Made by a program: the position numbers and the translations under genes. A stretch of DNA of 64,000 nt. It comes from an uncultured Bdellovibrionales bacterium. Lineage in GTDB: Bacteria > Patescibacteriota > Minisyncoccia > Moranbacterales > UBA1568. The stretch covers positions 33,393-97,392 of the forward strand of contig CAYTED010000003.1 in the NCBI GenBank assembly GCA_964436855.1, given 5' to 3'. The notes under the pieces were generated by a model, which saw only the letters and a program-made list of their open reading frames with translations, was not told the origin of the DNA and searched no databases. This document shows positions 29,456 through 61,553 of this stretch, in pieces (within the stretch, counting starts at the first letter, position 1; the number at the start of each line of letters is the position of its first letter).

Positions 29456-29544
29456 ATTCTATTTGAGAGCGGGCCGCCTTTCATCCAGCCCGAAGGGCGG
29501 ATGGGCGAGCCTCGCTCAAAAATTTTGCTCAAGAAAAATTTTTG

Positions 29545-29616: not shown

Positions 29617-29735
29617 TTTCGCAAAGCCTTCGGCGGGCAAACCCGCTTTTGCTTTACAGTTTTGTACAAAACTCCCCCCTCAATCAATTCATTCTGTGGG
29701 ACCGGTTGGAATCGAACCAACGACCAATCGGTTAT

Positions 29736-30359
29736 GCTTCTCACTATTGCTTTCGCAACTTTTTTCAAATTTGTGAGCTGGACTATCCCTTCACCCAAAC
29801 AGGGTGTCTGCCGTCTAGTCTCTACACCTTCCCCAGCAAAACGCAGGGGCTTGGCTCGGGATTGTCATGCGACTTGCAAAAAGTTTGTCGTTTAGATTTC
29901 CCCGAATTTGGCAGAGTATCACTTGGAAATTACTTCCCAAGCAGCCCTTCGTATTCATTACATCTTGTGTTATTGTTTCGCTATGAAAAAAATCACAACT
30001 TGTACCGTGTGTGGCAAGACATTATCCGGAAGGCAACTTCGGTTTTGTTCGATGCAATGCAAGAACCAAGTTCACCAATCATACCAAGCGCAACAGGCTC
30101 GGGGACTCAAAAGAAAAATGCTTCTCTTAAAGCGATTTGGTGGAAAATGCTCCATCTGCAATTACGACAAAAACCTCGCCGCACTTACATTTCATCATAT
30201 CGACCCGAAGCAAAAGAGTTTCCAACTTGATATGCGATCTCTTTCGAATCGAAAACAATCCCAAATCGATACCGAGATACGAAAATGCATACTCGTTTGC
30301 AATAACTGTCATGCCGAACTCCACAACCCACAACACAATTTGAAATGAACTTTTTGAGC
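29736..30359 (-). mobile_element. Group I intron (Azoarcus-like IC3 core) in the tRNA(CAU) anticodon loop
   Basis: The intron RNA contains GGGGAAATCTAAACG, CCCGAGCCAAGC, and GAAGGTGTAGAGACTAGACGGCA followed by GGGATAGTCC (P7 GACTA/TAGTC). The 5' splice site follows U33 and the intron ends in G. Of the ~624 nt, ~366 nt are the antisense HNH ORF. Confidence 0.8.
29983..30348 (+). CDS. HNH homing-type endonuclease (encoded antisense within the group I intron)
   Basis: CxxC...CSICNYDKNLAALTFHHIDPKQKSF...LVCNNCHAELHN = zinc-finger plus HNH motif; ORF 29908-30348, probable start at M26 (29983). Confidence 0.75.
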   Translation: MKKITTCTVCGKTLSGRQLRFCSMQCKNQVHQSYQAQQARGLKRKMLLLKRFGGKCSICNYDKNLAALTFHHIDPKQKSFQLDMRSLSNRKQSQIDTEIRKCILVCNNCHAELHNPQHNLK

Positions 30360-30418
30360 CGACCGCTCTAACCCCTGAGCTACGGTCCCTTCTTGTCTCT
30401 CACCTTCCCTGAGCTCTG

Positions 30419-30490
30419 TGCCGGAGGGCAGAATTGAACTGCCGACGCAAGGATTTTCAGTCCTTCGCTCTACCACTGAGCTACTCCGGC
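30419..30490 (-). tRNA. tRNA-Phe (anticodon GAA)
   Basis: Acceptor GCCGGAG/CTCCGGC, anticodon loop CTGAAAA, T-loop TTCAATT. Confidence 0.85.
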
Positions 30491-30542
30491 ATTTGAAACG
30501 AACACCTCTCTATTATCCACACATTATCCCAAAAATCAACGG

Positions 30543-30616
30543 TGCACGCTCAAGGATTCGAACCTTGGACCCCCTCGGTGTAAACGAGGTGCTCTAACCA
30601 ACTGAGCTAAGCGTGC
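30543..30616 (-). tRNA. tRNA-Val (anticodon TAC)
   Basis: Acceptor GCACGCT/AGCGTGC, anticodon stem CCTCG/CGAGG with loop TTTACAC, T-loop TTCGAAT. Confidence 0.85.
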
Positions 30617-30672
30617 GAACAACATTATTACTGTACCACAAAAAGAAAAAGCGCTTTGTGCGCTTTATTCTG

Positions 30673-30756
30673 TGCCCAAGAGAGGACTCGAACCTCCAAT
30701 CCCTTGCGGGAACTAGCACCTCAAGCTAGCGCGTATACCAATTCCGCCACCTGGGC
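30673..30756 (-). tRNA. tRNA-Leu (anticodon GAG), long variable arm
   Basis: Acceptor GCCCAGG/CTTGGGC, anticodon stem CTAGC/GCTAG with loop TTGAGGT, long variable arm, T-loop TTCGAGT. Confidence 0.8.
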
Positions 30757-45943: not shown

Positions 45944-46411
45944 TTAAAGAGCGACTTGCGGGGCGGGCTTGATGATGATTTTTCGATCCTCACCTCTTCC
46001 GGAACTTTCCGTAAGGACTTTCCCGCGATTGGCGAGATAGGTATGCACAATTTTCCGCTCATAAGGGAACATCGGGCGAAGGGTGACGGTCCGGCCCGTG
46101 CGAAGCGCCTCTTCTTCGGCCTCCAAGGCCTCGCGCTCGAGAATCGGTTTCTTTTCTTCCAAATAATGATTCACATCAATAAGAAGATCGATGCGTTCCG
46201 AAAGCTTTTGGGAGAGAATCGAACGCGCGATGTATTGAAACGCCGCAAGCGAAACGCCGTGCTGCCCGATAAAAATCTTCGATCCATCCGAAAGGGCAAT
46301 ATCGGCGGAATATGCCGTTTCTCCCGATTTTTGAACGGATACCTCGCCGGAAAATCCCATTCTTTGCAGGAGTTCGGTTATAACTTGTCGCACCATTTCT
46401 TCGTGATTCAT
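45944..46411 (-). CDS. jag: Jag/KhpB-like RNA-binding protein (KH + R3H)
   Basis: Jag_N-like N-terminus, KH and C-terminal R3H (HTYLANRGKVLTESSGRGEDRKIIIKP); conserved position after yidC. Confidence 0.8.
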   Translation of the reverse strand: MNHEEMVRQVITELLQRMGFSGEVSVQKSGETAYSADIALSDGSKIFIGQHGVSLAAFQYIARSILSQKLSERIDLLIDVNHYLEEKKPILEREALEAEEEALRTGRTVTLRPMFPYERKIVHTYLANRGKVLTESSGRGEDRKIIIKPAPQVAL

Positions 46412-46423: not shown

Positions 46424-47197
46424 TTATTTCTTTACTTCTGTATGTTCCGCATGCTTCTCTTTGAAAATAAATTGCTGCTGAATAATAGTGAAAACCGTAG
46501 AAACAAGCCAGTACAGAGAAAGCCCCGCCGGAAACGTAATACCGACAAAAAGCGTCATCCCGGGTCCGAGAATAAGCATTTGCTTATTCATAATAGTCGC
46601 GAAGTCCGGCTTTTCATCCGATTGTTCCTCTTTCTTTTCCTTTTCTTTTCGCGCTTCTGCGGATTTTTTCTGCACATCAAGCATCATCTTGGTCTGATAA
46701 TACTGTGCCGCCGCCGCAAGAATCGCAAAAAGATAGCTCGGTTTCGCAAGATCGGCAATTCCGAAAAAGTGATGCGAGATCTCTCCGGGATGAGAAACAA
46801 AAGAGTAGAGTTGTGCGGCATCGACGGAAAATCCTGCCGCGGAAACGCTGATAATCGCCCGATAAATCGCAATCAGAAAAACGACCTGCACAATAAGCGG
46901 GAGGCACCCGGCAAACGGATTCACCTTATGCTCCTGATAGAGTTCCATAAGGGCTTTCTGTTGCGCCGCTTTGTCATCTTTGTATTTCCGTTGGATTTCC
47001 TTCGTGAGCGGTTGGATTTCCTGCAGCTCCTTTTGCGATTTGATTTGTTTTTTGTAGAGCGGAATAAAGAGGACTCTCAAAAGAAGGGTTGTCGCGATAA
47101 TCGCGAGGCCAAAATCGCTCCCCGGGATGGTATTGTAGAAAAAAATGAGCGAGTTATAAATCGGCTGAGCGACAAGAGTATGGAAAAGTTCAGTCAT
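46424..47197 (-). CDS. yidC: Membrane protein insertase YidC (short, Gram-positive type)
   Basis: 257 aa; conserved NPFAGCLPLIVQ helix and YidC/Oxa1 core. Confidence 0.9.
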   Translation of the reverse strand: MTELFHTLVAQPIYNSLIFFYNTIPGSDFGLAIIATTLLLRVLFIPLYKKQIKSQKELQEIQPLTKEIQRKYKDDKAAQQKALMELYQEHKVNPFAGCLPLIVQVVFLIAIYRAIISVSAAGFSVDAAQLYSFVSHPGEISHHFFGIADLAKPSYLFAILAAAAQYYQTKMMLDVQKKSAEARKEKEKKEEQSDEKPDFATIMNKQMLILGPGMTLFVGITFPAGLSLYWLVSTVFTIIQQQFIFKEKHAEHTEVKK

Positions 47198-47210: not shown

Positions 47211-47558
47211 TTATTTTCGGATTTTTTGGAGGCATCCCGAAAGCGTGCGGGACACTTCTTCCAGTGTAAGCGATTCCGGCCGTTTCGTATAGAAGAAGGC
47301 GTATTCTCCCGCTGGAAAAAGCTTTTTTTTCAGATAATCACGGCTTGCTTCTCGGAGAAGTCTCTTTGCTCGATTTCGTTCCGTCGCTTTGCGAAAGTAT
47401 TTTTTCGATGCGATTACCGCTATTTTTACCTCTTTTCCTTTGTTTTCAGCGGAAAATACCACTTTCCCACCCAGAAAAAGATAAAAAAGGGGCTTTCCTT
47501 CACGAAAAACCCTTTCTATTTCCCCTGTACCGGTCATTCGATTTCCCTTGGGAAGCAT
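47211..47558 (-). CDS. rnpA: Ribonuclease P protein component
   Basis: LPKGNRMTGTGEIERVFREG...ERNRAKRLLREA RnpA signature. Confidence 0.85.
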   Translation of the reverse strand: MLPKGNRMTGTGEIERVFREGKPLFYLFLGGKVVFSAENKGKEVKIAVIASKKYFRKATERNRAKRLLREASRDYLKKKLFPAGEYAFFYTKRPESLTLEEVSRTLSGCLQKIRK

Positions 47559-47706: not shown

Positions 47707-47889
47707 ATCTCTGAAAAGCTTATTACAACACTCAAAAGAATACTTCCTTTTCAGAAAAAAGTCAAACGGTATGCGCTGTATGCCTCGTTATCCACTTATA
47801 CACCGGATATACACCAGCTTCCTCGATACCAATTTCGCTCCGTGATATAATGCTTTCGTTTTCTCTTTATCCCCCGTGAATATTCCCCT
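47707..47889. promoter_or_regulatory. rpmH-dnaA intergenic region: DnaA-box cluster and dnaA promoter (TATAAT at 47845-47850)
   Basis: TTATCCACT (47785-47793), TTATACACC and ATATACACC box-like repeats; GTGATATAATGC -10 element. Confidence 0.55.
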
Positions 47890-49332
47890 ATGACCAATGA
47901 AGAGCTCTGGAAAGCCGCACTTGGACAAATCGAGCTTTCCATTTCCAAGGCAAACTTCATAACGTGGTTTAAAAACACCGCCCTTCTCTCGATTTCCGAT
48001 GGATCGGTTTCTATCGCCGTCCCAAATGGATTCGCAAAAGAATGGCTTGAAAACAAGTACAATCTTTACATTCTTCGAGCGCTTCGGGATATTTCCGGAA
48101 CCGATATCAAAAAAATTCTCTGTATTATACAAGCCGAGCAAGGATCCACTCCTTCGGAACATCGGCCTCGCGGTCCGTTTATCGATGCCGTAAAAGCTCC
48201 GGAAAGGCTTTCTTTCGAACAAAACACGACTTATACACCGTCTTCACACACCCCGTCCGGCTCCTTTCAGCCGATTTCCATTGCAAAAAACGAACCCATT
48301 TACCCGCATCACTCTAATTTGAACCATCGGTATACTTTCGAAAATTTTATCGTTTCGGAGAACAACGAACTCGCCCGAGCGGCCTGTTATGCCGTTTCCC
48401 AAAATCCCGGAACTATCTACAACCCGCTTTTTATTTATGGCGGCGTCGGACTCGGGAAAACCCACCTTCTTCAATCTATCGGAAATGAACTCGTAAAAAA
48501 TCACCCGGAAAAACGCATTAAATACATTACTTCCGAACGATTTACCACCGAACTTGTCGATTCCATTCGCAATCAAACAATTGATAAATTTAAAGAATAC
48601 TACCAACATATCGACCTTCTCATTATCGATGATGTACAGTTTCTTTCCGGCAAAGAAAAGACGCAAAATGAATTTTTCCATATTTTTAATGCGCTCTACC
48701 AACTCAATAAACAAATTGTCATTTCGAGCGATCGACCACCACATGCCATCGCCACTCTTGAAGATCGGCTTCGCTCGCGATTCCAAGGCGGGATGATTAC
48801 TGATATCAGTCGTCCAAATTATGAGACACGAATCGCCATTCTTGAAGCGAAAATGCAAGAAAAAGGCTTTCTTCTCGATCGAGAATCAGTTCATTATATT
48901 TCGGAAAATATCACTCAAAACGTCCGCGAACTTGAGGGGGCGTTGAATCGTATTGTTGCGTACTGTGAATTTCACAAAATCACTCCTTCTCTCTCGGCGA
49001 CCCAAAAAATCCTCTCCCAACTCATTTTTCAAACTAAGAAAAACCTCCAAACCGAAGATATTTTCCGCATTATTACCGAATATTATAAAGTCGAAAAAGA
49101 CGATCTCATTCGAAAAGGACGGAAAAAGGAAATTTCCCATCCGCGACAGGTTGCAATGTACCTGATGCGAAGCGAGCTTCAAACTCCTTTCTCCAGTATT
49201 GGAGAAATTTTCGGCGGTCGAGATCACACCACCGCGCTTCACGCATTTGAAAAAATCCATCAAGACACCCAAGAAAATCAAAAAATAAAAGAGGAGCTCA
49301 ACACCCTAAAAGACCACCTTTATTATTCTTAA
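47890..49332 (+). CDS. dnaA: Chromosomal replication initiator DnaA
   Basis: 480 aa; AAA+ Walker A GGVGLGKTHL, sensor motifs and C-terminal DnaA-box-binding helix-turn-helix. Confidence 0.97.
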   Translation: MTNEELWKAALGQIELSISKANFITWFKNTALLSISDGSVSIAVPNGFAKEWLENKYNLYILRALRDISGTDIKKILCIIQAEQGSTPSEHRPRGPFIDAVKAPERLSFEQNTTYTPSSHTPSGSFQPISIAKNEPIYPHHSNLNHRYTFENFIVSENNELARAACYAVSQNPGTIYNPLFIYGGVGLGKTHLLQSIGNELVKNHPEKRIKYITSERFTTELVDSIRNQTIDKFKEYYQHIDLLIIDDVQFLSGKEKTQNEFFHIFNALYQLNKQIVISSDRPPHAIATLEDRLRSRFQGGMITDISRPNYETRIAILEAKMQEKGFLLDRESVHYISENITQNVRELEGALNRIVAYCEFHKITPSLSATQKILSQLIFQTKKNLQTEDIFRIITEYYKVEKDDLIRKGRKKEISHPRQVAMYLMRSELQTPFSSIGEIFGGRDHTTALHAFEKIHQDTQENQKIKEELNTLKDHLYYS

Positions 49333-49613
49333 ATACAATAATACGTGGATAACCTGTGAAAAACTCCTGTATAAATCCTTTCTTTCCTTGTGCACCCTGT
49401 GGATACTTTGTTAAAAAATACTTCAAAAAATTCTCTCCCTGAATATTTTTTCACTTTACCCCCTATTCATTCAGAATAAATCCCCAAAATCTCCCCCTAT
49501 GAATTCCTTATTTTCCCTTTTAATAAAACATTTCACTCACTTTTCCACTTATACACCACACTAATAGTAATAATATTTAATATATATTTAATTAATATTT
49601 ACTTTATAAACAT
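49333..49613. promoter_or_regulatory. oriC: Candidate oriC: DnaA boxes plus AT-rich DNA-unwinding element between dnaA and dnaN
   Basis: CGTGGATAA (49344-49352) and TGTGGATAC (49398-49406) are reverse-complement matches to TTATCCACA at 8/9. CCACTTATACACC is shared with the upstream spacer. 49560-49613 is ~90% A+T. Confidence 0.6.
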
Positions 49614-50765
49614 ATGAAAATTCTTTGTACTCAAGAAAATATTACAAAAGCTATCGGGTCACTCGAGCGAGTAACCGGAAAGCAATCAAGTCTCCCGATT
49701 CTTGCGAATTTTCTCCTGGAAACAAGTAAAGGACGACTGAAGATATCTGCTACTAATCTTGAAATCGGAGTGATTGCGCATATTGGAGCGAAAATCGAGC
49801 GTGAGGGAAAAATTGTGGTTCCGGCAAAACTTTTGAGTAGTTTTATTCATAACCTTCCAGAAGGGGATGTGGTTTCCTTAGAAACGGAAAATCAAACGCT
49901 TCATATCGTGAGCGGGAATTATGATATGAAGATAAAGGGATTTGAATCAAAGGATTTCCCGATCATTCCGCAGTTTGAAGAGGAATATCTCTTTTCCCTT
50001 CCAGCACAGTCGCTCAAAAATGCCCTTTCAAGACTTCTCCCGTGCGTTTCTCTTTCGGATACCCGTATTGAGCTCACGGGAGTGCATATCTTCTTTTTTG
50101 AAAAAGAGCTTCATTTGGCGGCGACGGATAGTTTTCGGCTCGGGGAAGAGATTTTTTCTCTCCAAGATCTTCCGGAAAAGGAAAAATACGATGTGTTCCG
50201 GGAAAAAACCGAAAGCCTTATCTTGCCGGCAACGACGCTTCAGGAAGTCGCCCGGGATATTTTTCCGGAAACAGAACGAGTGGAAATTATGGTTTCTGAA
50301 AATCAAATTTTCTTCCAAATCGGGGATATTCAAATTGTTTCGAGGCTTATCAATGGGAAATATCCGGATTATAAACAGATTATCCCCCAAAACTTCACCT
50401 TTAACGTGGAAATTGAGCGGGAGCTTCTTTTGCGGGCGATCCGGATCGGAAGTATGTTTTCGTCTCAAAGTTCCGGAGAAGTGAGTTTTCGGGTGATTCC
50501 GAACGATGAAATGGTGGTGGTGAAGGCGGTTTCTCGGGAAATCGGAGAAAACACCGTGAAAATACCGGCGAAAATAGAAGGAAATGGAGAAATAACGCTT
50601 ACCTTTAATCCGAGATATATTCTCGATGGGCTTTCGGTGACACATTCTTCAAAAGTGCTTTTCTCTTGCAATACGCCGCAAAGTCCCGCTTCTCTGCGAA
50701 TGGTTGATGAAAAAGGTTCCGTGATTTCCGATTTCCTTTATATTATGATGCCGGTCCGAAAGTGA
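49614..50765 (+). CDS. dnaN: DNA polymerase III beta sliding clamp
   Basis: 383 aa, three-domain clamp; N-terminal MKILCTQENITKAIGSLERV typical. Confidence 0.95.
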   Translation: MKILCTQENITKAIGSLERVTGKQSSLPILANFLLETSKGRLKISATNLEIGVIAHIGAKIEREGKIVVPAKLLSSFIHNLPEGDVVSLETENQTLHIVSGNYDMKIKGFESKDFPIIPQFEEEYLFSLPAQSLKNALSRLLPCVSLSDTRIELTGVHIFFFEKELHLAATDSFRLGEEIFSLQDLPEKEKYDVFREKTESLILPATTLQEVARDIFPETERVEIMVSENQIFFQIGDIQIVSRLINGKYPDYKQIIPQNFTFNVEIERELLLRAIRIGSMFSSQSSGEVSFRVIPNDEMVVVKAVSREIGENTVKIPAKIEGNGEITLTFNPRYILDGLSVTHSSKVLFSCNTPQSPASLRMVDEKGSVISDFLYIMMPVRK

Positions 50766-50868
50766 TACCATGTGATAAATTCATAAGAGTCTGTCATCCC
50801 CGCGAAGGCAGGGATCTAGAATCCACAAATAAACGATTTATTGTAGGGTTAAATTCATCCGGCATACT

Positions 50869-51180
50869 ATGCGAAATCTTTCAGAATATCTTCAAAAAAA
50901 GAATTTTTCCCCGATTGTCGACAGTGGCGAAGAAATTTCTCGCGAAATAGACGACAAAACCGTATTTTCGGTATTCCGAATGGTGATTGAAGGGGAATAC
51001 GGCGCGCGCGGGAAAGAAAATATCGAGCCGCGATTCTATCAGAAGAAAAAACTCTTCGTGAGTTTCCGGAGTTCTCTTTGGGCGAGCGAAGTTTGGCTCA
51101 ATCGCGAGCACCTCAAGAAAAAACTCAACGAAACCCTTGGATTTCAGGGGATCGATGAGATAAAAGTGAGTATGAATTGA
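50869..51180 (+). CDS. dciA: DUF721/DciA-like protein (putative replicative helicase operator)
   Basis: 103 aa; LFVSFRSSLWASEVWLNREHLKKKLNE resembles the DUF721 core; conserved location after dnaN. Confidence 0.55.
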   Translation: MRNLSEYLQKKNFSPIVDSGEEISREIDDKTVFSVFRMVIEGEYGARGKENIEPRFYQKKKLFVSFRSSLWASEVWLNREHLKKKLNETLGFQGIDEIKVSMN

Positions 51181-51273
51181 TAGTTCTAAACTATTGACAA
51201 AAAATTAAAAGAAGTTCATAATTAAATGTTTTATTTAACAATACAAGCATCATTGGCCTAAAGGAGAATTAGC

Positions 51274-52035
51274 ATGAAGCTAAGACTTTGGACAGCAATT
51301 CTTTTGGTGCTATGTCTCGTGCGGATAGACATTATCACCGTTCCATCTCGACCACCGATGTATAGAGATCTAAAATACGTTAAATTTGATCCCAAACACA
51401 ACACCTTTTATGATTACGGGTTAAGTGTTGAAGGGTGGTGTGTGGTAAGTGGTGGTTTTGGTAGGGACCTATGCTCTAGGCCCGACCCTATACCCGCTAA
51501 GGATCAGCTAAAATTCTCTCTTCGAGAGGGAGTGCTAAGGGAGAGGAATTGGTCGTACCTTGTTGGCGCAATATATGTCACACAGAAACGTGTCTTAGAG
51601 CGCCTCTATGATGATATTGAAGGGAAAACGCATTACCTATTTAACTGTGCCGCGCCTCCTTTTACACCGCCAGGCATGAAAGTCGTTATGCATAATGGCA
51701 AGAGATACGCGTGGGACTTTTGTGTTGAGGTGTACTCGCCGCATAGCGAAACAAATAGTGAGTTTGTAAGGGGATATGATTATCTAAAAAAACTCGCCGG
51801 GCGACAGGCGCTAGACGCCACAACACTAGAATATCTTCTCTCAAATCCGTATCTCATACCGCTAAATTGGCGAAAACCAGGAATGCAAATTTTATTCCCT
51901 GGAACGATTTATGGGAATGAATTGGGGGTGTATCACTGTGGTCTACTTTTTAGCACGAATGGTCGGTGGTGCGCTTCGATTGTTCCTCTCGACACTGAAT
52001 GGGCCAACAATGTTGTAGCCGCGATCAAGGTATAA
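51274..52035 (+). CDS. Hypothetical secreted Cys-containing protein in a compositionally atypical cassette
   Basis: Own promoter (TTGACA-17-CATAAT at 51194-51222), strong RBS AAGGAGA and signal peptide. Codon usage is rich in CTA/AGA/AGG/ATA, unlike neighbouring genes. A 10-bp-stem terminator follows. Confidence 0.6.
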   Translation: MKLRLWTAILLVLCLVRIDIITVPSRPPMYRDLKYVKFDPKHNTFYDYGLSVEGWCVVSGGFGRDLCSRPDPIPAKDQLKFSLREGVLRERNWSYLVGAIYVTQKRVLERLYDDIEGKTHYLFNCAAPPFTPPGMKVVMHNGKRYAWDFCVEVYSPHSETNSEFVRGYDYLKKLAGRQALDATTLEYLLSNPYLIPLNWRKPGMQILFPGTIYGNELGVYHCGLLFSTNGRWCASIVPLDTEWANNVVAAIKV

Positions 52036-52040
52036 AAACA

Positions 52041-52080
52041 GCCGTCAAGGAGGGTAACCACCTTGGCGGCCTTTTGTTTG
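52041..52080. terminator. Rho-independent terminator (GCCGTCAAGG...CCTTGGCGGC stem) between the cassette gene and the convergent PBP1A gene
   Basis: 10-bp stem (one G.U) followed by CTTTTGTTTG; A-tract on the other side. Confidence 0.7.
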
Positions 52081-52089
52081 GTCTTCAAC

Positions 52090-54696
52090 TCAATAACTCA
52101 CCGAGACGTTTTTGGAGGATTTTGCTTTGTTGCCGTTCTTATCTTTCACTTCGGCTTCTATTTCAAGCGTGGAATTGTTTTTTTCCGCCGGAATAGAGTA
52201 AGACACCAAGTAGGGCTTGCTCCCGCTTGAGCCGACTTCATTTCCATTCACCCTGTAAGTGACGCTTTCGACGCCATACTCCGCATTGACGCTTGCTTGA
52301 AGCGTGAGAGATGAGGAAGAGGTGCTTCCCGGGACGGAAAGAGAAATCAAGGGGAGATATTTTTTGAAGTCGTCTTGTTCGCATTCATTTTTTGGCGGAT
52401 CATCGACGACGAATTTCTTCCGGTTTTCTTTGTTTTCATACCAGTCTTTCACACCTTTTTCCCATGATTTGTATTGTGAATCGCGGTCGGGTTTGTCCGG
52501 GATCGGTCCCAATGGATCATCGCGGTTCACATAGGAGAGAATGTCGTGTCCGGAAACGAAATCCTTTTTCTCTACGTCTTTATCGCGACAGAATTTATTC
52601 GCGAGGCAGAATTTGTCATCTCCGATTTCACAGACCTTCACGTCTTCTTTCATATCAAGTTTGCCGTTTATCATCGGCTTGTCGACGAGGGTTTTCTCGG
52701 AATCTTTGTTGTCTTTGTCTTCGCCGTCTTTTTTCTCGGTATCGTTGTCTGTTTTGTATTCCGGAAACGATTCGACGGGGGAGTTTTGGAGCGCTTTGTC
52801 AATAAAATTTCGCCAAATCGGTGCGGCGACAACCGAACCATCCGCGCCCGGAGTCATCGCGGCGTTGTCGTTGTTCCCTACCCAGACGCCGACCGCGAGC
52901 GAGGGGGTAAAACCCATTGTCCAGGCATCGCGGAATTCATTTGTCGTTCCGGTTTTCGCGGCAACTTGGCGATTGTCGAAACGAAGCAAATTTTTCTCGC
53001 CGAAAACCGGTGCTCGGTAGTCGTTGGTCGACATTACATGGTCGAGCATCGCGACATATTTTTCATCTACGACGCGTTCCCCCGGGTTTTCTTTGTATTC
53101 CTCGAGCATCGTCCCATCGGTTCCTTCGATGCGGAGAATGGCGGTTTTTTCGCGTTTCACACCGCCTGCTGCGAGGGTCGCATAGGCGTGGGCGTGATCG
53201 ATAAGCTTCACTTCACCGCCACCCAAGACGAGCGAGAGTCCGTATCGATCGGGATAATTGAGCGTCGTGATACCAAGGTCTTTTGCCATTTTGGTTGCGT
53301 CTTTTACGCCAACCAAATAGAGTGTTTTGACCGCGGGAATATTGAGCGATTGCGGAAGTGCTTCTTTCATTGGGATCGGGCCGCGGAATTTTCCATCGTA
53401 ATTCTGCGGTTCGTATTTTTTTTCTTCATTCGTATCGAATTGCGTTGGTGTGTCGTAGAGAAGGGTGTCTGGCGAATAGCCCTTGGTAAACGCGGTAAGG
53501 TAGACATAGGGTTTGATAGAAGAGCCCGGCTGTCGTTCGCGGATGGCGACGTTTACATTGCCGTCGATCGAGGCATCAAAATAGTCTTTTGATCCGACCA
53601 TGGCGAGAATTTGACCGGTTTTCGGGTCGATTGCGACGAGCGCGGCGTTTGAAGCCTTCCATTTCGTTGCATTTTTTTCAACACCTTCGCGCACTGCTTG
53701 CTCGGCGGCCATTTGTTTGTCCCAATCAAGCGTCGTGTATACTTTGAAACCATTTTGTTCGATGGCGAGATCGCCGAATTTTGTCGCGAGGTATTCTTTT
53801 ACGTACATGACGAAGTGCGGCGCGGCGATAATGTCTTTTTGCGGGGAAATTTTTGCGAGAACATCTACAGCGATAGCTTCGTTTGCTTGATCTTCGCCGA
53901 TGTAACCGAGACGCGCCATCGTTTTCAGGGCGACCTCTTGGCGGATTTTGAGTTCATTGGTTCGGGATCCGTACGGGGAATAGCGGCTGGGAGCCTTCGG
54001 GAGCGAGGCGAGGAGCGCCGCTTCGTCGAGGGAGAGATCTTTGGCGGATTTTCCAAAATAAGTTTGCGAGGCCGCTTCGATACCGTAGGCGTTCATTCCA
54101 TACGGGATTTCATTCAAATACATCGCAAGGATCTCGTCTTTCGAGAATTTCTGCTCGATTTCGATCGAGAGAATAGCCTCTTTGATCTTTCGAACGATAG
54201 TTTTCTCATTGGTGAGGAGAGAGTTTTTCACAAATTGCTGGGTGATGGTGGATGCGCCTTGAGCTGCGCCTCGATGGAGGAGATCTTTTAAGGCGGCGCG
54301 GACAATTGAGGTAATTTTAATCCCATGGTGGGAGTAAAAATCTTGATCTTCGAGCGAAAGCGTTGCGGCACGAACAGCTTCTGGCATATCAGAGAAAGGG
54401 ATAACCGTGCGTCGTTCCTCCCCGTGCACTTCGTAGAGGAGGTGCTCGCCGGTGCGGTCGTAGATTTTGGTCGATTCGGCGATAAAGCGCTTGTTTACCT
54501 TGCCGGGACTCGGAAGGTCTTTCGCGACATAGGCAAACACGGCGATTGTCGAGAAGACGCCGATAACAAAGAGAAAAAGAGTGAATTTTACACAAAAACG
54601 AAAGAATTTCCGCCATTTTGAGCGGTTTTTCGGTTTTTCTTCGCGGGGATCTTCATCTCGCGCCTTTTTCGGCCGCAAGAAGTGAATAATGGTCAT
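52090..54696 (-). CDS. Class A penicillin-binding protein (PBP1A: GT51 glycosyltransferase + transpeptidase) with long C-terminal extension
   Basis: N-terminal TM; GT51 motifs (GASTITQQF), transpeptidase SSIKP / KTG motifs; 868 aa. Confidence 0.92.
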   Translation of the reverse strand: MTIIHFLRPKKARDEDPREEKPKNRSKWRKFFRFCVKFTLFLFVIGVFSTIAVFAYVAKDLPSPGKVNKRFIAESTKIYDRTGEHLLYEVHGEERRTVIPFSDMPEAVRAATLSLEDQDFYSHHGIKITSIVRAALKDLLHRGAAQGASTITQQFVKNSLLTNEKTIVRKIKEAILSIEIEQKFSKDEILAMYLNEIPYGMNAYGIEAASQTYFGKSAKDLSLDEAALLASLPKAPSRYSPYGSRTNELKIRQEVALKTMARLGYIGEDQANEAIAVDVLAKISPQKDIIAAPHFVMYVKEYLATKFGDLAIEQNGFKVYTTLDWDKQMAAEQAVREGVEKNATKWKASNAALVAIDPKTGQILAMVGSKDYFDASIDGNVNVAIRERQPGSSIKPYVYLTAFTKGYSPDTLLYDTPTQFDTNEEKKYEPQNYDGKFRGPIPMKEALPQSLNIPAVKTLYLVGVKDATKMAKDLGITTLNYPDRYGLSLVLGGGEVKLIDHAHAYATLAAGGVKREKTAILRIEGTDGTMLEEYKENPGERVVDEKYVAMLDHVMSTNDYRAPVFGEKNLLRFDNRQVAAKTGTTNEFRDAWTMGFTPSLAVGVWVGNNDNAAMTPGADGSVVAAPIWRNFIDKALQNSPVESFPEYKTDNDTEKKDGEDKDNKDSEKTLVDKPMINGKLDMKEDVKVCEIGDDKFCLANKFCRDKDVEKKDFVSGHDILSYVNRDDPLGPIPDKPDRDSQYKSWEKGVKDWYENKENRKKFVVDDPPKNECEQDDFKKYLPLISLSVPGSTSSSSLTLQASVNAEYGVESVTYRVNGNEVGSSGSKPYLVSYSIPAEKNNSTLEIEAEVKDKNGNKAKSSKNVSVSY

Positions 54697-54787
54697 ACAA
54701 GGCTTGTTTAAGGGAAATTTTTATTTTCCACTAAGCCGATTGTACAAGAAAGAAGAGTATTTTTCAAGGTTATTGAACCAATTGCCT

Positions 54788-55726
54788 TTAAGCGGGGAGG
54801 TTAAATATATCTCTCAAAATCGGACGGATAACCATTTGGGGCTGCCCACTTGTTGGGTAATAGTGTATACGAAGATCGGGATATGTATTGGCCTCAAGGA
54901 AGTATACGGACTGCTCTTTCGGTGAAAGGGAAATGTTTTCACAAATAATATCAATTCCGCTTAAATCGAGATTGAGCGCCTTAAGGGATTTCCACGCAAG
55001 AGAGAGAAGCTCCGGGTGCACTTCAGCGGTGCAGTCGCGCGTAGACCCCCCTTCTGAAAGCCGGGAATTTTCTTGAAGACGAACGACCGTATTTTTTTCA
55101 GGGATATTTTTCAGTGTAAGCCCATTCTTTTTCAGTGTTGTCTGAACAGCAGGCGAGAGAATAATTTTTTTTAGAGCATTGATATTTTTCAAATCAATAA
55201 GTTCTTGGATGGTATTTTTTCCATTTCCGATAACGTGAGGGGGAATCATTTGAAGCGCTCCTAAGAGTTTCCCTTTATACAGGAGGAGCCTGTATTCATT
55301 TCCGGTAACCATTTGCTGGACAAGGAAGCTTTTTGAATATGTTTGTGCGACAAGAAAAAGCTCGTCGACACTCTGAATATTCATATGCACATTCATACTT
55401 TTTGATCCGCCGGATTCCTTAGTGATAAGCGGAAAAGAAAGACTGATGGATGTGATAGATTTTTTAAACTCCTCAAAGTTTTTGAAATGATGAAAAGCCG
55501 GGTGAGGAACTCCTTCTTCTTGCCAAAGAGCGTACGAAATCGCCTTGTCTTTTGAAAAACGATAAATTTCCATATAGGGATCGCGCGCTACGGAAAACAA
55601 CTCACATACAAGCAGTGATCTTGATTTATTAAAGATTCGAAATAAATGCTTTGAATCGGAAATAATTTTTGTTTCCAAGCCGAGTGCTGTAGCCTCGGAA
55701 AGAATGAGTTGAGAATTTTTTGTCAT
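54788..55726 (-). CDS. ATP-grasp amidoligase, cyanophycin-synthetase-N-terminal-like
   Basis: ATP-grasp C-terminal half GIDIICENIS...FLEANTYPDLRIHYYPTSGQP resembles the CphA N-terminal ligase domain; no Mur-ligase domain; start at MTKNSQL. Confidence 0.55.
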   Translation of the reverse strand: MTKNSQLILSEATALGLETKIISDSKHLFRIFNKSRSLLVCELFSVARDPYMEIYRFSKDKAISYALWQEEGVPHPAFHHFKNFEEFKKSITSISLSFPLITKESGGSKSMNVHMNIQSVDELFLVAQTYSKSFLVQQMVTGNEYRLLLYKGKLLGALQMIPPHVIGNGKNTIQELIDLKNINALKKIILSPAVQTTLKKNGLTLKNIPEKNTVVRLQENSRLSEGGSTRDCTAEVHPELLSLAWKSLKALNLDLSGIDIICENISLSPKEQSVYFLEANTYPDLRIHYYPTSGQPQMVIRPILRDIFNLPA

Positions 55727-55730
55727 AAAT

Positions 55731-56618
55731 TTATTTTTTTCTGGCACTTGAATATTTAGAGAGTGCATAGTCGATAATAAACGAAGAGGGGTCAATCCCC
55801 GTCACTTCCTTCAGTTTTTTCCATTGAGGAGCGCTGTTTACTTCAAGAACACAATATTTACCATCTTGTTTTTTGATGATATCTACTCCTGCAATCTCAT
55901 AATTCATTACTTGAGCAGCGTCAAGAGCAAGTTTTTTTATTTGCGGCGTTAGGGCGATACGAGACGCCTTTGCGCCAAGAGATGCGTTAGAGCGAAAATC
56001 TCCTTGAAGAATGTGTCGTTTCATTCCGGCAACAACTTGATTGCCGACAACAAAAACCCGAATATCTCCGTCGATAGGAAGGTATTCTTGTAAGAAATAA
56101 CCCCGGTTATTTTTTCTTAAAAATTCTTTTGCCTCTTGAAAATTTTCAAATTTTTTAATGCCATTTCCTTTGCTTCCAAATATTGGCTTTGCGATGATAG
56201 GAAGTCCTATTTTCTCTATTACAAAAGAAAGATCTCGTGCGGATAAGGCCTGTGCGGTTTGCGGATGTGGGATATGGTGTTGATGAAACTGACTCGCTTG
56301 AAATATTTTGTCTCCGAAAAATCCCTCTTTGCCAAGATCGTCATTAACAATGATTTTCTTCTGGTTGAGGAGATATTGAGCAAGGACGGAAACTGCCGGG
56401 CGAACCATTCGGTATCCTCCACGGAAAAGAAAAATATCACAGTCGAGCAAGTTTATATTTTTATAAATAAATACGGGCTCATTTTCTGAAAATGTGATTA
56501 TGATATTCTTCATGCGAACAGGAATCGCAATATGACCTCTTCGGATAATTTCTTCTATGAGGTCTTTGGCGTGTACTCCGGGACGGCCCCCGATAATGGC
56601 AAATTTCAATTTTTTCAT
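55731..56618 (-). CDS. rimK: RimK-family alpha-L-glutamate ligase (ATP-grasp)
   Basis: KPIFGSKGNGI, DIRVFVVGNQVVAGMKR, GDFRSNASLGA, VDIIKKQDGKYCVLEVNSAPQW: canonical RimK motifs; start at MKKLKFAIIGG. Confidence 0.8.
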   Translation of the reverse strand: MKKLKFAIIGGRPGVHAKDLIEEIIRRGHIAIPVRMKNIIITFSENEPVFIYKNINLLDCDIFLFRGGYRMVRPAVSVLAQYLLNQKKIIVNDDLGKEGFFGDKIFQASQFHQHHIPHPQTAQALSARDLSFVIEKIGLPIIAKPIFGSKGNGIKKFENFQEAKEFLRKNNRGYFLQEYLPIDGDIRVFVVGNQVVAGMKRHILQGDFRSNASLGAKASRIALTPQIKKLALDAAQVMNYEIAGVDIIKKQDGKYCVLEVNSAPQWKKLKEVTGIDPSSFIIDYALSKYSSARKK

Positions 56619-56637
56619 ATAACTAAGGGGCGTTGGA

Positions 56638-58047
56638 TTAATTTTTTGAAACATCGATAAGAAATTTCCCGAGATTTTTTCTTCCGATGATAACCGGGTA
56701 TTCGAGTTGTGAGCGATCAACAATAGAAGCTCGGGCTGAAATTTCAATACCATCAAGCAAAAGAGAACACTTCACTTTTGGGCGCAAGCTCACGCCACTT
56801 GATGAGTAGACGACGATAAGATCATCGAGATCCGGGTGCTTTCCGAGGTGTTCTTTTCTGATGTTTGCTTCAAATTCTTTCACGATTTCTCTGGGTATTT
56901 CTACCGGCTTTTTTATGTTTGAAAAATACTCCAATACGGAGGAAAACCCGAGCTCTCTCGCAAGCCCGGTATCAATTGAAGTCGAGTCCGCGCCGGTGTC
57001 GATTTTTGCTTCGACTTCAATCTCTTTTCCATTTTTACCGATAAGCTTTACTTTTTCAACCGTGCCAATGACACGTCGCCCAGAAAGCTCTTCGATTTCT
57101 TCTTCAATTTCACCACCGAAGAGATTCATTCCGAGGCGAACGCCACGCTCAGTTGTTTTAATTTTGATATCCCGAACACGGTCGAGGCGACTCTTTAATC
57201 CATCGAAGTTTGCAAGTTGAATAGAGAGGCCTGGACGTGCATTGAGCTCGAGAATTACGGGGCCGCGATCGCGATCAATCGCTACATCCGCACCAAGAAA
57301 TCCGAGGCCGGAGATTTTCTGCGCGTCAACCGCCATAGTGAGAATTTGTTTCCAATACGGAATTTTGATACCGGAGAGGGCGAGGCGCGTTCCCGGGACG
57401 TGCTCGATAATGGTTCCTTTGCCGACGATAGCGCTTGTTGTGGTACCTGTCGCCATATCGATCCCAACGCCGATCGCGCCCTGCTGGAGATTTGCTTTAC
57501 CGTCGGAGGCGCGTGTTGGAAGTCGGAGCATTGCCATTACCGGTACGGAATTAAAAATGATCACGCGGATGTCGGGGATTCCTTTGAAAGAATATGGCTT
57601 GAAGAGCTTGAGGAGTTTGAGGCGCTCTTCGAAGAAAGCAATGTCGGGTGTGTTAGACAGAGAAAACGATCCATCGAGAATGTTTTGGATATGAATTTTC
57701 AAATCATCAACGGTTACTATTGATCCGTCGGCTTTTACCCAAGCGTCTTCACGGCCCTTCTTCCGCGCATAGACAACGAGAATACCCTCACCGCCGAAAC
57801 CGCGGTTTGGTTTGAGTGCAAAACTATCGGGGAGCCTCGACCAGTCAAACCGATCGAGCTCGTCGTGATTTCGAATTTTTCCGATAAGCCCAGGGACAGG
57901 GAGGCTGGCATCAGAGAGCGTTTTTTTGCAGAGGAGTTTTCGGTCGGCAATTCGCATTCCGCGCTTGCGGTTGAATGGGCGCACATACCCAAGGTTACGT
58001 GCGTTCATCCCGAGCAATTTTCGGCTTTTTCGAAAAAATTCAAACAT
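56638..58047 (-). CDS. RimK-related alpha-L-glutamate-ligase-like ATP-grasp fused to C-terminal retropepsin-like aspartic protease (RimB/DUF785-like)
   Basis: N-terminal GMNARNLGYVRPFNRKRGMRIADRKLLCKKTL and the ATP-grasp core ILELNARPGLS. The C-terminal IGTVEKVKLIGKNGKEIEVEAKIDTGADSTSIDTGLA has a DTGA active site. Confidence 0.65.
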   Translation of the reverse strand: MFEFFRKSRKLLGMNARNLGYVRPFNRKRGMRIADRKLLCKKTLSDASLPVPGLIGKIRNHDELDRFDWSRLPDSFALKPNRGFGGEGILVVYARKKGREDAWVKADGSIVTVDDLKIHIQNILDGSFSLSNTPDIAFFEERLKLLKLFKPYSFKGIPDIRVIIFNSVPVMAMLRLPTRASDGKANLQQGAIGVGIDMATGTTTSAIVGKGTIIEHVPGTRLALSGIKIPYWKQILTMAVDAQKISGLGFLGADVAIDRDRGPVILELNARPGLSIQLANFDGLKSRLDRVRDIKIKTTERGVRLGMNLFGGEIEEEIEELSGRRVIGTVEKVKLIGKNGKEIEVEAKIDTGADSTSIDTGLARELGFSSVLEYFSNIKKPVEIPREIVKEFEANIRKEHLGKHPDLDDLIVVYSSSGVSLRPKVKCSLLLDGIEISARASIVDRSQLEYPVIIGRKNLGKFLIDVSKN

Positions 58048-58068
58048 ACCCGCGTCGGTGAGCGCGAA

Positions 58069-58725
58069 TTAGAGGTACTTGAAAATACGGCGAAATCGCC
58101 AGTATTCCGAGAGACGGAGCCCCGACCATTTGCCGAGGACGATGTTGATTGGGAAAACAAGCAATATCGCCCACGGATAGGCGAGAAGAAACTCTCGAAT
58201 CGATTCGGCACGGATAACGGCGTATCCAGCAAGTGAAATAACAAGTGTTTCGGCGGCGAGAATGAGCGCCACGCGATTTCCTTTCTCAATCTGTGTCGCA
58301 ACAAATTTTTCCGCAAGGGTGATCATAATAAGGAGTGGGAAAATCGAAATCGCCGCGAGGCCGGTGCGTTGAAAGTATCCGCCCGAGACGAGGATGCCGA
58401 GGATGACGAGTGAGATAATCGAGAGTGTGATCGCGACGCGTGGGAGATAGAGGAGACGGAATGGCTTGAGAAGATAGCGCGCGAGCGTCCCGACGGCGAT
58501 GACCGCGATGAAGACGGCGATCCCGTATTTGAGGCCGTTCGGATCGAAAGCGAGAAAAGCGAATGTAACGATCGACGGTGTATAAATGCCAAATGCTTTG
58601 ATGCCGATAACTTGGCGAAAAAACGCAACGAGGGTCGCAACGACTGGAAGAAGCAAAAGGAGTGCGACCGTTTCAAGCGGCACGCCTTCGTTTATGAAAA
58701 AGGTGATAATGGGATGGAGATTCAT
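58069..58725 (-). CDS. Seven-TM membrane protein (7TM module of the type usually fused to an inactive transglutaminase)
   Basis: 218 aa, seven hydrophobic helices; 4-nt overlap with ruvC and directly upstream of the ATP-grasp genes in the same orientation. Confidence 0.5.
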   Translation of the reverse strand: MNLHPIITFFINEGVPLETVALLLLLPVVATLVAFFRQVIGIKAFGIYTPSIVTFAFLAFDPNGLKYGIAVFIAVIAVGTLARYLLKPFRLLYLPRVAITLSIISLVILGILVSGGYFQRTGLAAISIFPLLIMITLAEKFVATQIEKGNRVALILAAETLVISLAGYAVIRAESIREFLLAYPWAILLVFPINIVLGKWSGLRLSEYWRFRRIFKYL

Positions 58726-59222
58726 ACACTTCCAGTTTTTCTTAGGGATTCCACTTTTCTTCGGCTTGCGTGGCAGAGAGCGATTGCGAGAGCGTCCGCG
58801 GTATCGTCGGGCTTTGGAATTGTTTTGAGTTTCAAGACAGCTTTCACCATCAATTGTACTTGTGTTTTGTCCGCTTTCCCATAATTCGTCAAGGCTTGCT
58901 TGACTTCGAGAGGGGTGTAGCCTGCAATACTAACACGGAGGTGCTCTAAAGTCAAGAGAATAACGCCTCGTGCTTGGGCGACGGAAATCGCCGTTTTTTG
59001 GTTATTAAAGAAGAAAAGTTCCTCCACGCCCGCCTCTTTTGGCTTCCATTTTTTGACGATTTTTTCGATATCGTCCGCGATTTCAGTAAGTCGCTTTTCG
59101 AGGGGCAAATCTTTGCTCGTTGAAATATGTCCGTACGCGACGGATTCCGGCTTTCCATTATTTATTTCAATAACCCCCCAGCCGACGGTCGCGGTTCCGG
59201 GATCGATACCGAGGATACGCAT
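58722..59222 (-). CDS. ruvC: Crossover junction endodeoxyribonuclease RuvC
   Basis: MRILGIDPGTATVGWGVIE catalytic Asp and RNase H-like fold, 166 aa. Confidence 0.92.
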   Translation of the reverse strand: MRILGIDPGTATVGWGVIEINNGKPESVAYGHISTSKDLPLEKRLTEIADDIEKIVKKWKPKEAGVEELFFFNNQKTAISVAQARGVILLTLEHLRVSIAGYTPLEVKQALTNYGKADKTQVQLMVKAVLKLKTIPKPDDTADALAIALCHASRRKVESLRKTGSV

Positions 59223-59357
59223 AAATCATGTAGCAATTAACAGCGAACAAATAATACAAGCTAAGAATAGGTTGAAAAAACACTCTTGTCATTCCGGGTT
59301 TCTTTATTTGGTGCAACTGAACCGGAACGCCAATTTTCTTATTGTTGAATTGGTATG

Positions 59358-60164
59358 TTACGAAAAATAATTGTTCAAATCCACTTTTTTTCCAAGCCGA
59401 GTCAATATTGAAAAGAGTATCTTAAATGTTTCAGCGACTTCTCTTCCTCGAATAATCATGGCAACGTCTCGTCTCATGACCGTAATTACGAGAAAGTCTT
59501 TAAAGCAGAAAATATCAGTGTCAAAATTCAGGGCATCATCGGGGAGAATGTAGCCGATGACGAGACGGCCGGTATGGGCGCGCTTCACTTCGGGATTGGT
59601 CGCTTGGATAAGCTTAATGGTTGTTTGTGAACACACCGCCTCAAGAATAACCCCTTTTTTCTTGAAAGCAGATTGCCAGGCTACGATAGTTTCGGTATGT
59701 AGATGAGAAAGTTTTTGTCTGGCAGACCCGGTTCCCTCGATAAAATATGCTCGTTCCCCGGACGGAAGATCGAGAATCATTTTATATGCTGCACGAAAAC
59801 CCGTTTTTGTAGTATGGAGTTCGATTGAATAGTGGGAGCGAACACGCTCCTCATTGAGGAGTGATTGGAGTAAGGGAATCTCTTCTTTTAATTCTTTTAC
59901 ATGTTCATCGAGCATTCTTGCGAGCGCATCAAGATCGGAACATTCATATTCGAAGTGTTTTCTGATTTTTATTCGAGAGACTAATTCATGGGCGAGTAAT
60001 CGATTGATAATAGGGTAGAGAGTAGTGCGGGGGAGGCCGGTGTCTTTTGCAAGATCAGTGATTCGTGAGCTGCCGTGCTTGAGGAGCGCAAAAAAGACAC
60101 AGATTTCCTTCTCTGAAAATCCAAAAGCCAACAGCGCCTCCTTTGTTTTTTGCGCATTCTTCAT
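59358..60164 (-). CDS. TrmB-family transcriptional regulator
   Basis: N-terminal wHTH (LAFGFSEKEICVFFALLKHGSSRITDLAKDTGLPRTTLYPIINRL) plus C-terminal TrmB-like domain. Confidence 0.7.
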   Translation of the reverse strand: MKNAQKTKEALLAFGFSEKEICVFFALLKHGSSRITDLAKDTGLPRTTLYPIINRLLAHELVSRIKIRKHFEYECSDLDALARMLDEHVKELKEEIPLLQSLLNEERVRSHYSIELHTTKTGFRAAYKMILDLPSGERAYFIEGTGSARQKLSHLHTETIVAWQSAFKKKGVILEAVCSQTTIKLIQATNPEVKRAHTGRLVIGYILPDDALNFDTDIFCFKDFLVITVMRRDVAMIIRGREVAETFKILFSILTRLGKKVDLNNYFS

Positions 60165-60337
60165 AGTTAAACTATACAAAACGTCGAATATTTAGTCAAA
60201 ACAATATTTAATATTATGGCTTTCATAAAATAATAATTTGGTAATTGTATTTAACACGTCTTTATTCCAGACATTTTAAAAAATTTTTGCTTTATTTGGT
60301 GCAGGCAATATCGCCTGTCATTTAAGAGGTTTTTCTT

Positions 60338-60532
60338 ATGGAAATCATAAGACAAGTGTCGCCCGAATGCGGGATCGGTGCATGCCCAGCTGTTTTTGAG
60401 ACCGATCAAGAAAGCTTCGTTGTCGTAGGCCGTCAGATCGACCAGAACGAAGTGGTAGCGCTTGGTCTGGAATCGAAGATTGCGCCTGGCGAGAACGCCG
60501 TCGAAGTCCCGAAAAGCACGTTCCGTGTTTAG
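60338..60532 (+). CDS. Small GC-rich ORF with ferredoxin-like N-terminal motif (possible remnant)
   Basis: Strong RBS AAGAGG. SPECGIGACPAVFETD resembles the C.G.C...CP.VFE of single-cluster ferredoxins but lacks the full Cys set. GC is clearly above the surroundings. Confidence 0.3.
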   Translation: MEIIRQVSPECGIGACPAVFETDQESFVVVGRQIDQNEVVALGLESKIAPGENAVEVPKSTFRV

Positions 60533-60780
60533 ATGGGGCGATTCTATTTAAAGGCACAGGTTCCGAGGCAGACATGAACAAAAAGCCTCATGGTTTCCCG
60601 GGTGGCGAACGCGCTACTCGGGATTTTTCTTTTTCTTCAAAATCTTTCCAAAACTTTCTGTACACAAAAGTAAGCGGTCGTGGAGAATTGTGCACGACGG
60701 GCATTGAGAATATAGTATCAACTTATGACGGCCGTCGGGAGATGATACGTTTTTCACAAAAATAGTCATTTATCGCGATT

Positions 60781-60814
60781 AAAATACAGCGGAGAGACCG
60801 CTGTATTTTTTTTG
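60781..60814 (+). terminator. Rho-independent terminator
   Basis: ATACAGCGGAGAGACCGCTGTAT hairpin followed by TTTTTTTT. Confidence 0.7.
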
Positions 60815-60836
60815 TTGACTGTTTATTGCTGATTGC

Positions 60837-61553
60837 TCACTGAAGGTTGTCCCACACGGTTTGTACATCGGTGTTGTCTTCGAGGAGTTCTTTGAGTTTT
60901 TCATACTTTTCGAGGTCGTCTGCGGAAAGCGAAACCATTTGTGTGGGGAGGTATCCGAGCTCGGCGGATTCTGGAATCATATTTTTTGATGCGAAAAAAT
61001 TTTGCACGGTCTGGAGATCTTCGACTTTGGTGATGACGAGGAAGACTTCTTCTTCGAGTTTGAAATCATCGGCGCCAGATTCGACGGCTTCTATTTCAAG
61101 CATATCGATCGAGTATTTCTCGAGTGAAAAAACGATGATGCCGCAACGCTTGAACATGAAAGAAACGGAACCACTCGGCACGAATTTCCCACCGTTCTTC
61201 GTAAGAATGGTTTTCACTTCACCGACGGCGCGGTTTTTGTTGTCGGTCATGCCTTCGATCAAGAGCGCGACTTGCCCCGGTCCGTACGCTTCATAGATCA
61301 CTTCTTCAATGAGCGCGCCTTCTTTTGCTTCGCCAGTACCGACCTTGATGGCGCGGTCGATACGATCCTTCGGCATATTGACACTCCGCGCACGATCGAT
61401 CGCGAGGCGGAGTTTGAAATTCATATCAGGATCCCCGCCGTCGCGTGCGGCGATGGAAATCAGACGACCGTGTTTGGTGAAAATGGCGGCGCGCTTGGCG
61501 TCGTTTATTCCTTTGGCGCGATGGGTGGTAGCCCAGTGGGAGTGTCCGGACAT
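60837..61553 (-). CDS. yebC: YebC/PmpR family DNA-binding transcriptional regulator
   Basis: MSGHSHWATTHRAKGINDAKRAAIFTKHGRLISIAARDGGDP canonical YebC N-terminus, 238 aa. Confidence 0.9.
   Translation of the reverse strand: MSGHSHWATTHRAKGINDAKRAAIFTKHGRLISIAARDGGDPDMNFKLRLAIDRARSVNMPKDRIDRAIKVGTGEAKEGALIEEVIYEAYGPGQVALLIEGMTDNKNRAVGEVKTILTKNGGKFVPSGSVSFMFKRCGIIVFSLEKYSIDMLEIEAVESGADDFKLEEEVFLVITKVEDLQTVQNFFASKNMIPESAELGYLPTQMVSLSADDLEKYEKLKELLEDNTDVQTVWDNLQ

Follow-up and report, generated by a model that had tools for sequence, protein, structure and literature searches.

A probable unwinding module between dnaA and dnaN

The 64-kb stretch of DNA that was analyzed here at its full length (hereafter, the window) carries dnaA (47890-49332, plus strand), encoding an initiator protein of 480 aa with domains I, III and IV (Pfam DnaA_N, Bac_DnaA, Bac_DnaA_C), followed on the same strand by the sliding clamp gene dnaN (49614-50765; Pfam PF00712, PF02767, PF02768). 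On the minus strand ahead of dnaA lie rpmH (ribosomal protein L34, 47566-47706; Pfam PF00468, E 2.7e-19) and rnpA (RNase P protein, 47211-47558; Pfam PF00825, E 2e-14), so that the classical rnpA-rpmH / dnaA-dnaN order, claimed for this locus in an earlier reading of the letters (the original prediction), was borne out by the Pfam gene assignments. We consider it probable, at roughly 80%, that the dnaA-dnaN spacer (49333-49613) is the replication origin (oriC) of a Moranbacteria chromosome and that a canonical basal unwinding system (BUS), with the layout and orientation of that of Bacillus subtilis, brings about its opening.

The putative module begins with two tandem DnaA boxes on the plus strand (49541-49557), TTTTCCACT at 49541-49549 and TTATACACC at 49549-49557, homologous to a TTATCCAG[A/T]TATCCACA unit found in 55 relatives. 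BUS boxes are expected to have at most two mismatches and usually stand in tandem; these two have two mismatches each to TTATCCACA and lie 8 bp apart. A gap of 3 nt (ACA, 49558-49560), falling in variable and mostly G/C columns (17-19) of the relatives, separates the proximal box from the trios, and the distal box is 11 nt from them; the published range for this spacer is 0-16 nt, with a peak at 10-13 nt from the better box. Six predicted DnaA-trios follow on the bottom strand (49561-49578), reading 3'-GAT TAT CAT TAT TAT AAA-5' (top strand CTA ATA GTA ATA ATA TTT), as judged from the sequence and from the periodicity of the relatives. A BUS calls for three or more consecutive trios with a central A, on the strand that has its 3' end toward the boxes, and all six are of this kind, with the consensus GAT in the first trio only. 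From 49558 to 49613, up to the dnaN start codon, the DNA is 91% A+T, the A+T-rich stretch continuing through the 35 bp from the last trio to the dnaN ATG. The 54 bases before dnaN (49560-49613), previously put at about 90% A+T, measured 92.6%; no 54-mer anywhere in the window is richer in A+T than the one starting at 49569 (94%). That this stretch is an unwinding element had been proposed before, and it is the likely site, given that the maxima of A+T content and box density and a family-conserved module all fall here. The trios had been overlooked, and with them the BUS architecture.

A strict rule (two boxes with at most two mismatches, a spacing of 8-12 bp, a gap of 0-5 nt and five trios) found its sole match in the window at 49541, and 2 of 100 block-shuffled sequences matched it. 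A weight matrix built from the relatives only, with the window excluded, likewise gave a single match in the 64 kb, at 49541-49574 (plus strand), with a score of 40.0 bits and a next best of -0.5. With this matrix no second unwinding module was found upstream of dnaA or elsewhere in the 64-kb window.

Conservation of the module in related genomes

The DnaA encoded in the window was compared with DnaA of 80 metagenome-assembled genomes (53-71% identity), most of them labelled Candidatus Moranbacteria or Moraniibacteriota (Patescibacteria), and the rpmH / dnaA-dnaN order was the same in almost all genomes where it could be checked. Seventy-two related dnaA-dnaN spacers, from genomes whose DnaA is 57-71% identical to that of the window, formed the comparison set for the module. 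It was present as a unit in 55 of the 72, 56-120 nt before dnaN, with the consensus TTATCCAG[A/T]TATCCACA-NNN-CTAATGATAATAA. Information content was high over both boxes and CTAATnATAATAA was sharply conserved, with CTAAT nearly invariant, and the 3-nt gap and the flanks were variable. Within the trios an A recurred at every third base, in 98, 86, 100 and 96% of the aligned modules at columns 23, 26, 29 and 32. Beyond the trios the relatives were mostly 80-100% A+T for about 40 columns; immediately upstream of the boxes conservation was much lower. Just ahead of the BUS boxes, at -30 to -12, relatives showed a moderately conserved element comprising an A-tract, CCC and TAAAAC, where the window has TTTTCCCTTTTAATAAAAC (49511-49529).

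GC skew and position of the probable origin

Cumulative GC skew, which the original prediction had named as a check on its origin, was computed for the 64-kb window and reached its minimum at 49716, staying within 15 counts of it over 49538-50116. Skew was -0.10 over 1-47706, -0.21 over dnaA and +0.08 over 49614-61000, so that within the window the spacer coincides with a GC-skew switch, as an oriC should. Coding-strand bias was considered as a cause of this switch and rejected, since the minus-strand genes to its left (40-47 kb) and to its right (52-61 kb) have opposite skew. The densest 300-bp windows for DnaA boxes in the whole 64 kb also fall here (49251-49650). The earlier claim of an origin region at this place thus agrees with the skew minimum, with the window maxima of box density and A+T content and with a family-conserved module, all of which coincide. 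The anatomy of the module, its conservation in the family, its uniqueness in the window and its coincidence with the G-C skew minimum are direct observations.

DnaA boxes in both spacers

Both spacers around dnaA are rich in DnaA boxes, and all box sequences that had been claimed for them were present. The rpmH-dnaA spacer holds three co-oriented boxes on the plus strand (47788-47815), TTATCCACT at 47788-47796, TTATACACC at 47796-47804 and ATATACACC at 47807-47815, at spacings of 8 and then 11 bp. Just past the dnaA stop codon, the dnaA-dnaN spacer opens with three minus-strand boxes exactly 11 bp apart that the original prediction had missed, TTATCCACG (top strand CGTGGATAA) at 49344-49352, TTTTTCACA at 49355-49363 and TTATACAGG at 49366-49374, and a fourth minus-strand box, GTATCCACA (top strand TGTGGATAC), follows at 49398-49406. 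In relatives, too, the end of the spacer next to dnaA has reverse boxes, of the TGTGGATAA or TGTATAA type. Allowing one mismatch, TTWTNCACA occurred 10 times in the 464 bp of both spacers, where its frequency in the remainder of the window predicts 1.29 (Poisson P about 1e-6). At least three boxes at spacings within about 100 bp, adjoined by an AT-rich unwinding element, are expected of an oriC and were found here.

An exact 13-mer, CCACTTATACACC, had been reported from both spacers. It is indeed shared, and its second copy lies at 49545-49557 as given; the first is at 47792-47804 rather than 47789-47801, a displacement of 3. With up to two mismatches it occurs five times in the window against 0.52 expected, a count reached in none of 100 shuffles. 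Both exact copies span the junction of two head-to-tail DnaA boxes with cores 8 bp apart, within tandem units (TTATCCAC|TTATACACC upstream, TTTTCCAC|TTATACACC downstream) that are identical at 16 of 17 bases; the shared 13-mer is merely the junction of a tandem box pair with 8-bp spacing. A previously overlooked copy matching at 12 of 13 positions, CGACTTATACACC, lies inside dnaA at 48227-48239 (plus strand), ahead of the part that encodes the AAA+ domain. Of 79 related dnaA genes, not one carries a box at this position, and the copy appears to be lineage-specific or a product of chance, its significance being uncertain. It could be a recent extra DnaA site; as a weaker alternative, it may be a working one.

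The dnaA promoter and its box array

A TATAAT promoter had been claimed for the rpmH-dnaA spacer, and a promoter scan recovered it with a score of 10/12: a -35-like TCGATA at 47823-47828 and an extended -10, TGATATAAT, at 47843-47851, separated by 17 nt on the plus strand. The TATAAT hexamer itself is at 47846-47851 with a TG ahead of it, and TGnTATAAT is conserved in relatives. At the -35 position (47821-47828 and its equivalents in relatives), 17 nt from the extended -10, a CTCG(C/A)T-like motif is conserved rather than TTGACA; the motif may mark either a promoter feature particular to the clade or a further binding site.

In the window, the ends of the three upstream boxes lie 50, 42 and 31 nt from the -10 hexamer. 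Across about 70 genomes, co-oriented upstream boxes were found 31-33, 42-44 and 53-55 nt from the -10, at times joined by one more box 8 bp farther from it (61-62 nt), and the spacing between neighboring forward boxes was 11 bp in 72 cases and 8 bp in 16. Some relatives have an extra box abutting the -10. Because these boxes hold fixed 11-bp steps from the dnaA -10 across the family, their arrangement suggests an operator array in helical phase with the dnaA promoter, and thus autoregulation of dnaA.

Comparison with known origins

Work by Richardson in 2016 and 2019 reportedly placed the B. subtilis basal unwinding system in the dnaA-dnaN part of oriC. That system comprises DnaA-boxes 6 and 7, DnaA-trios and an AT-rich element (Pelliciari 2021, PMC8287927; cryo-EM, PMC10721633). 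The B. subtilis entry in Table S1 of PMC8287927 reads AATAGGTGT|TTAGGTGT|CCGG|GATGATAAT... on the trio strand (3' to 5') and TTATCCACA|AATCCACA|GGCC|CTACTATTA on the other, where the window has TTTTCCAC|TTATACACC, ACA and CTAATAGTAATAATA. In both, the module stands between dnaA and dnaN and begins with a 17-bp co-oriented box pair of 8-bp spacing (boxes 6 and 7 in B. subtilis), after which come a short gap, trios on the strand with its 3' end toward the boxes, GAT as first trio and an AT-rich stretch beyond; in both, additional boxes are found farther up the same spacer and also ahead of dnaA. The window differs in its gap (3 nt versus 4 nt), in trios 2-5 (TAT/CAT rather than GAT/AAT) and in its boxes, TTTTCCACT and TTATACACC having two mismatches each to TTATCCACA. 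It differs also in its likely helicase operator, which is DciA-like rather than DnaD/DnaB/DnaI, and in that its module is known by sequence alone. Box orientation, trio strand, gap and AT-rich element agree with the Table S1 entries, including those for B. subtilis and Escherichia coli (PMC8287927), and the trio orientation agrees with the B. subtilis, E. coli and Clostridioides difficile entries.

In C. difficile, the trio sequence CACCTACTACTATTACTACTATGA precedes the unwinding element in the dnaA-dnaN region (PMC7561715). The bipartite origins (oriC1/oriC2) of C. difficile and Helicobacter pylori share with the window the rpmH-dnaA-dnaN order, box clusters on both sides of dnaA, and trios and an unwinding element in the downstream part alone; unlike theirs, the upstream cluster of the window is small (three boxes) and phase-locked to the dnaA promoter. 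DnaA boxes also adjoin the dnaA promoter in the autoregulated genes of E. coli and B. subtilis (PMC2533591), but in the window they are helically phased and lie ahead of the -35 position, at about -44 to -70, without overlapping the promoter core.

Proposed initiation pathway and alternative explanations

From the anatomy of the spacer we infer DnaA binding, the strand engaged and unwinding, along with the regulatory role of the upstream boxes. DnaA domain IV would bind the two co-oriented boxes at 49541-49557, and from this platform an ATP-DnaA oligomer, formed by way of the AAA+ domain, would extend onto the bottom strand and engage the six trios at 49561-49578. The oligomer would stretch this strand, with melting spreading into the 91% A+T stretch up to dnaN, and the helicase would then be loaded at the melted stretch, a step in which the DciA-like protein, whose gene follows dnaN, would probably take part. 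Recruiting or organizing further DnaA is the probable role of the reverse boxes nearest dnaA in this spacer (49344-49406), and the three boxes at 47788-47815 would serve mainly in autoregulation, as operators of the dnaA promoter.

Several points weigh against an origin of this kind. In a sister clade of 19 genomes (among loci L056-L075 and L078) the dnaA-dnaN spacer is short (13-162 nt) and has reverse boxes only, if any, and no BUS module was found in the dnaA-dnaN spacer of these 19 loci or within 3 kb on either side, so that the arrangement is not universal in the phylum. The skew minimum is a local one, taken over 64 kb, and skew is negative again past about 61 kb. The published loose BUS rule (one box, with up to two mismatches, separated by 0-16 nt from three or more NAN trios) describes the module but is unspecific here, with 52 sites in the window; it is therefore no evidence by itself, and the strict rule and the matrix of the relatives were used instead. 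Trios after the first are mostly TAT-type and not the preferred GAT/AAT, and in such a TAA-rich repeat the trio reading frame cannot be fixed by sequence alone. The AT-rich stretch could also carry signals for dnaN expression, and all evidence for the origin and its unwinding system is computational.

How the upstream array should be read is where the closest alternative departs from ours. DnaA-box clusters lie on both sides of dnaA (47788-47815 and 49344-49557), as expected of a bipartite oriC, and the same 17-bp tandem unit occurs in both, with 16 of 17 bases identical. A strictly bipartite origin of the B. subtilis, H. pylori and C. difficile type, in which initiation needs both the upstream and the downstream cluster and a loop mediated by DnaA bridges them, would be in keeping with these features and with the bipartite origins known from the same gene context (PMC7561715). 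Such an origin is compatible with the BUS proposed here and differs just in the role given to the upstream array. That array, however, has neither trios nor an AT-rich element, and the module matrix gave no second match; it is locked to the dnaA -10 in 11-bp steps throughout the family, including the sister clade, which keeps the phased array at its dnaA promoter while having no downstream module. Such a pattern would be expected of a transcriptional operator, and we regard a strictly bipartite origin as possible but somewhat doubtful. A more radical alternative is that the region merely regulates dnaA and dnaN expression and that the true origin lies elsewhere on the chromosome. The visible sequence is limited to 64 kb and the sister clade has no module at dnaA-dnaN, both of which leave room for this idea; against it, the skew minimum, the maxima of box density and A+T content and the conserved BUS module all fall within about 200 bp, and it seems to us highly improbable.

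Rather than DnaA-trios, the conserved CTAATnATAATAA and the AT-rich stretch might be a dnaN promoter or a sequence that a different DNA-binding protein recognizes. Single bases are conserved beyond the need of a loose NAN trio rule, and TATAAT-like strings occur 20-30 nt further on in many relatives. Set against this, the promoter scan found no sigma-70-like promoter in 49333-49613 of the window, and three features match a BUS: a period of 3 nt, a gap fixed at 3 nt behind the co-oriented tandem boxes, and a first trio of CTA (GAT on the bottom strand). A promoter or another binding site is therefore an improbable account. Similarly poor odds attach to the notion, put forward in the original prediction, that TTATACACC is a lineage-specific variant of the DnaA box and the 13-mer a specialized recognition element. 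In its favor, TTATACACC occurs three times in 1.8 kb, and A at position 5 is found in 40 of 156 CAC-type boxes of the clade that includes the window against 2 of 48 in the sister clade. Yet, with 8 of its 9 positions in agreement with TTATNCACA, the general consensus, TTATACACC is not a lineage-specific box; TTATACACA is treated as a standard DnaA box of somewhat lower affinity, position 5 of the consensus being degenerate (PMC2533591). Among aligned modules, position 5 of the homologous BUS box is C in 68% and position 9 is A in 75%, the spacers of the window also use TTATCCAC, TTTTCCAC and GTATCCACA, and the 13-mer spans a box junction rather than a single box. A species-specific box of the type of the Thermotoga 12-mer, where the predominant box departs from TTATNCACA throughout a lineage, was not seen: the homologous box is mostly [A/T]TATCCACA, and CAC-type boxes dominate in both clades.

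DnaA-box specificity

The DnaA of the window is canonical. It aligned to the B. subtilis DnaA chain 8btg_A (PDB 8btg) with 374 bits over domains III-IV, keeps the LEDRLRSRF arginine-finger stretch and the GGRDHTT box-recognition signature, and has K255/E256 for K222/E223 of B. subtilis; the residue of the single-stranded-DNA-binding motif that matches B. subtilis I190 is Val. One position stands apart. It aligns with P423 of E. coli DnaA, one of six base-contacting residues, and is Ser in all 55 DnaA sequences of the clade, the window included (loci L001-L080 compared), within a PFS[ST]IG motif that reads PFSSIGE at about residues 430-436 of the window DnaA. Pro occupies this position in E. 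coli, B. subtilis and Mycobacterium tuberculosis (motif LP[EK]IG) and is kept in the 19 sister-clade sequences (motif SYP[GS]IG); Aquifex DnaA also has no Pro there. Box usage differs between the same clades. The origin spacers of the window's clade hold 88 sites of TTATNCAG (G at position 8), 23 times background, against 3 sites in the sister clade, and the difference at position 5 noted above concerns TTATACAC. That the DnaA of this clade has a shifted box specificity linked to Ser at the P423 position seems to us unlikely on balance, and the covariation is a lead rather than a result because it reflects a single evolutionary split with many sites inherited.

Gene context and other features of the window

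Downstream of dnaN, and directly following it, is a gene for a DciA-like protein (50869-51180, plus strand; Pfam PF05258, E 2.2e-7, 31.4 bits against a cut-off of 24); because of this position, a likely helicase operator is encoded beside the origin. On the other side, rnpA is neighbored on the minus strand by yidC (46424-47197) and a gene for a jag-like R3H protein (45944-46411), both assigned by Pfam. The rpmH gene has a promoter-like site on the minus strand (TTGACT-17-TATTCT, 47737-47765; promoter scan 9/12), whose AAAGTCAA motif (reverse complement TTGACTTT) recurs at the same place in relatives. An Rfam scan of the window found no RNA family in the origin region.

Further from the origin, a parS-like palindrome, TGTTCCACGTGGAACA (two mismatches to TGTTTCACGTGAAACA), occurs in ten copies within 600 bp (24395-24989) against 0.27 expected. 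The array is 24.6-25.1 kb left of the unwinding site, close to the distance of about 24 kb from oriC that had been claimed for it. An exact TTATCCACA box lies between two of the parS-like palindromes, at 24484-24492. A group I catalytic intron on the minus strand (29756-29998; Rfam 56.6 bits, gathering score 50) is located inside a tRNA gene cluster (27329-30756) and may interrupt a tRNA gene.

Implications for Patescibacteria origins

A search through part of the published BUS survey table turned up no Patescibacteria taxon, and a full-text literature search found no paper describing Patescibacteria origin architecture. The origin proposed here is a well-conserved but ordinary example of a BUS, a system of a known kind. 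If Ser at the P423 position and box usage were causally linked, this would be a natural case of initiator-origin co-evolution, and the conserved TTATCCAG distal BUS box and the TAT-type trios would be lineage traits. The region as mapped gives a precise and testable replication-origin map for an uncultivated lineage of Patescibacteria (CPR) and would fix the origin position for estimates of replication rate from metagenome read depth. It adds weight to the view of the box-plus-trio unwinding module as ancient and widespread, extending the range of the BUS and leaving its mechanism unchanged.

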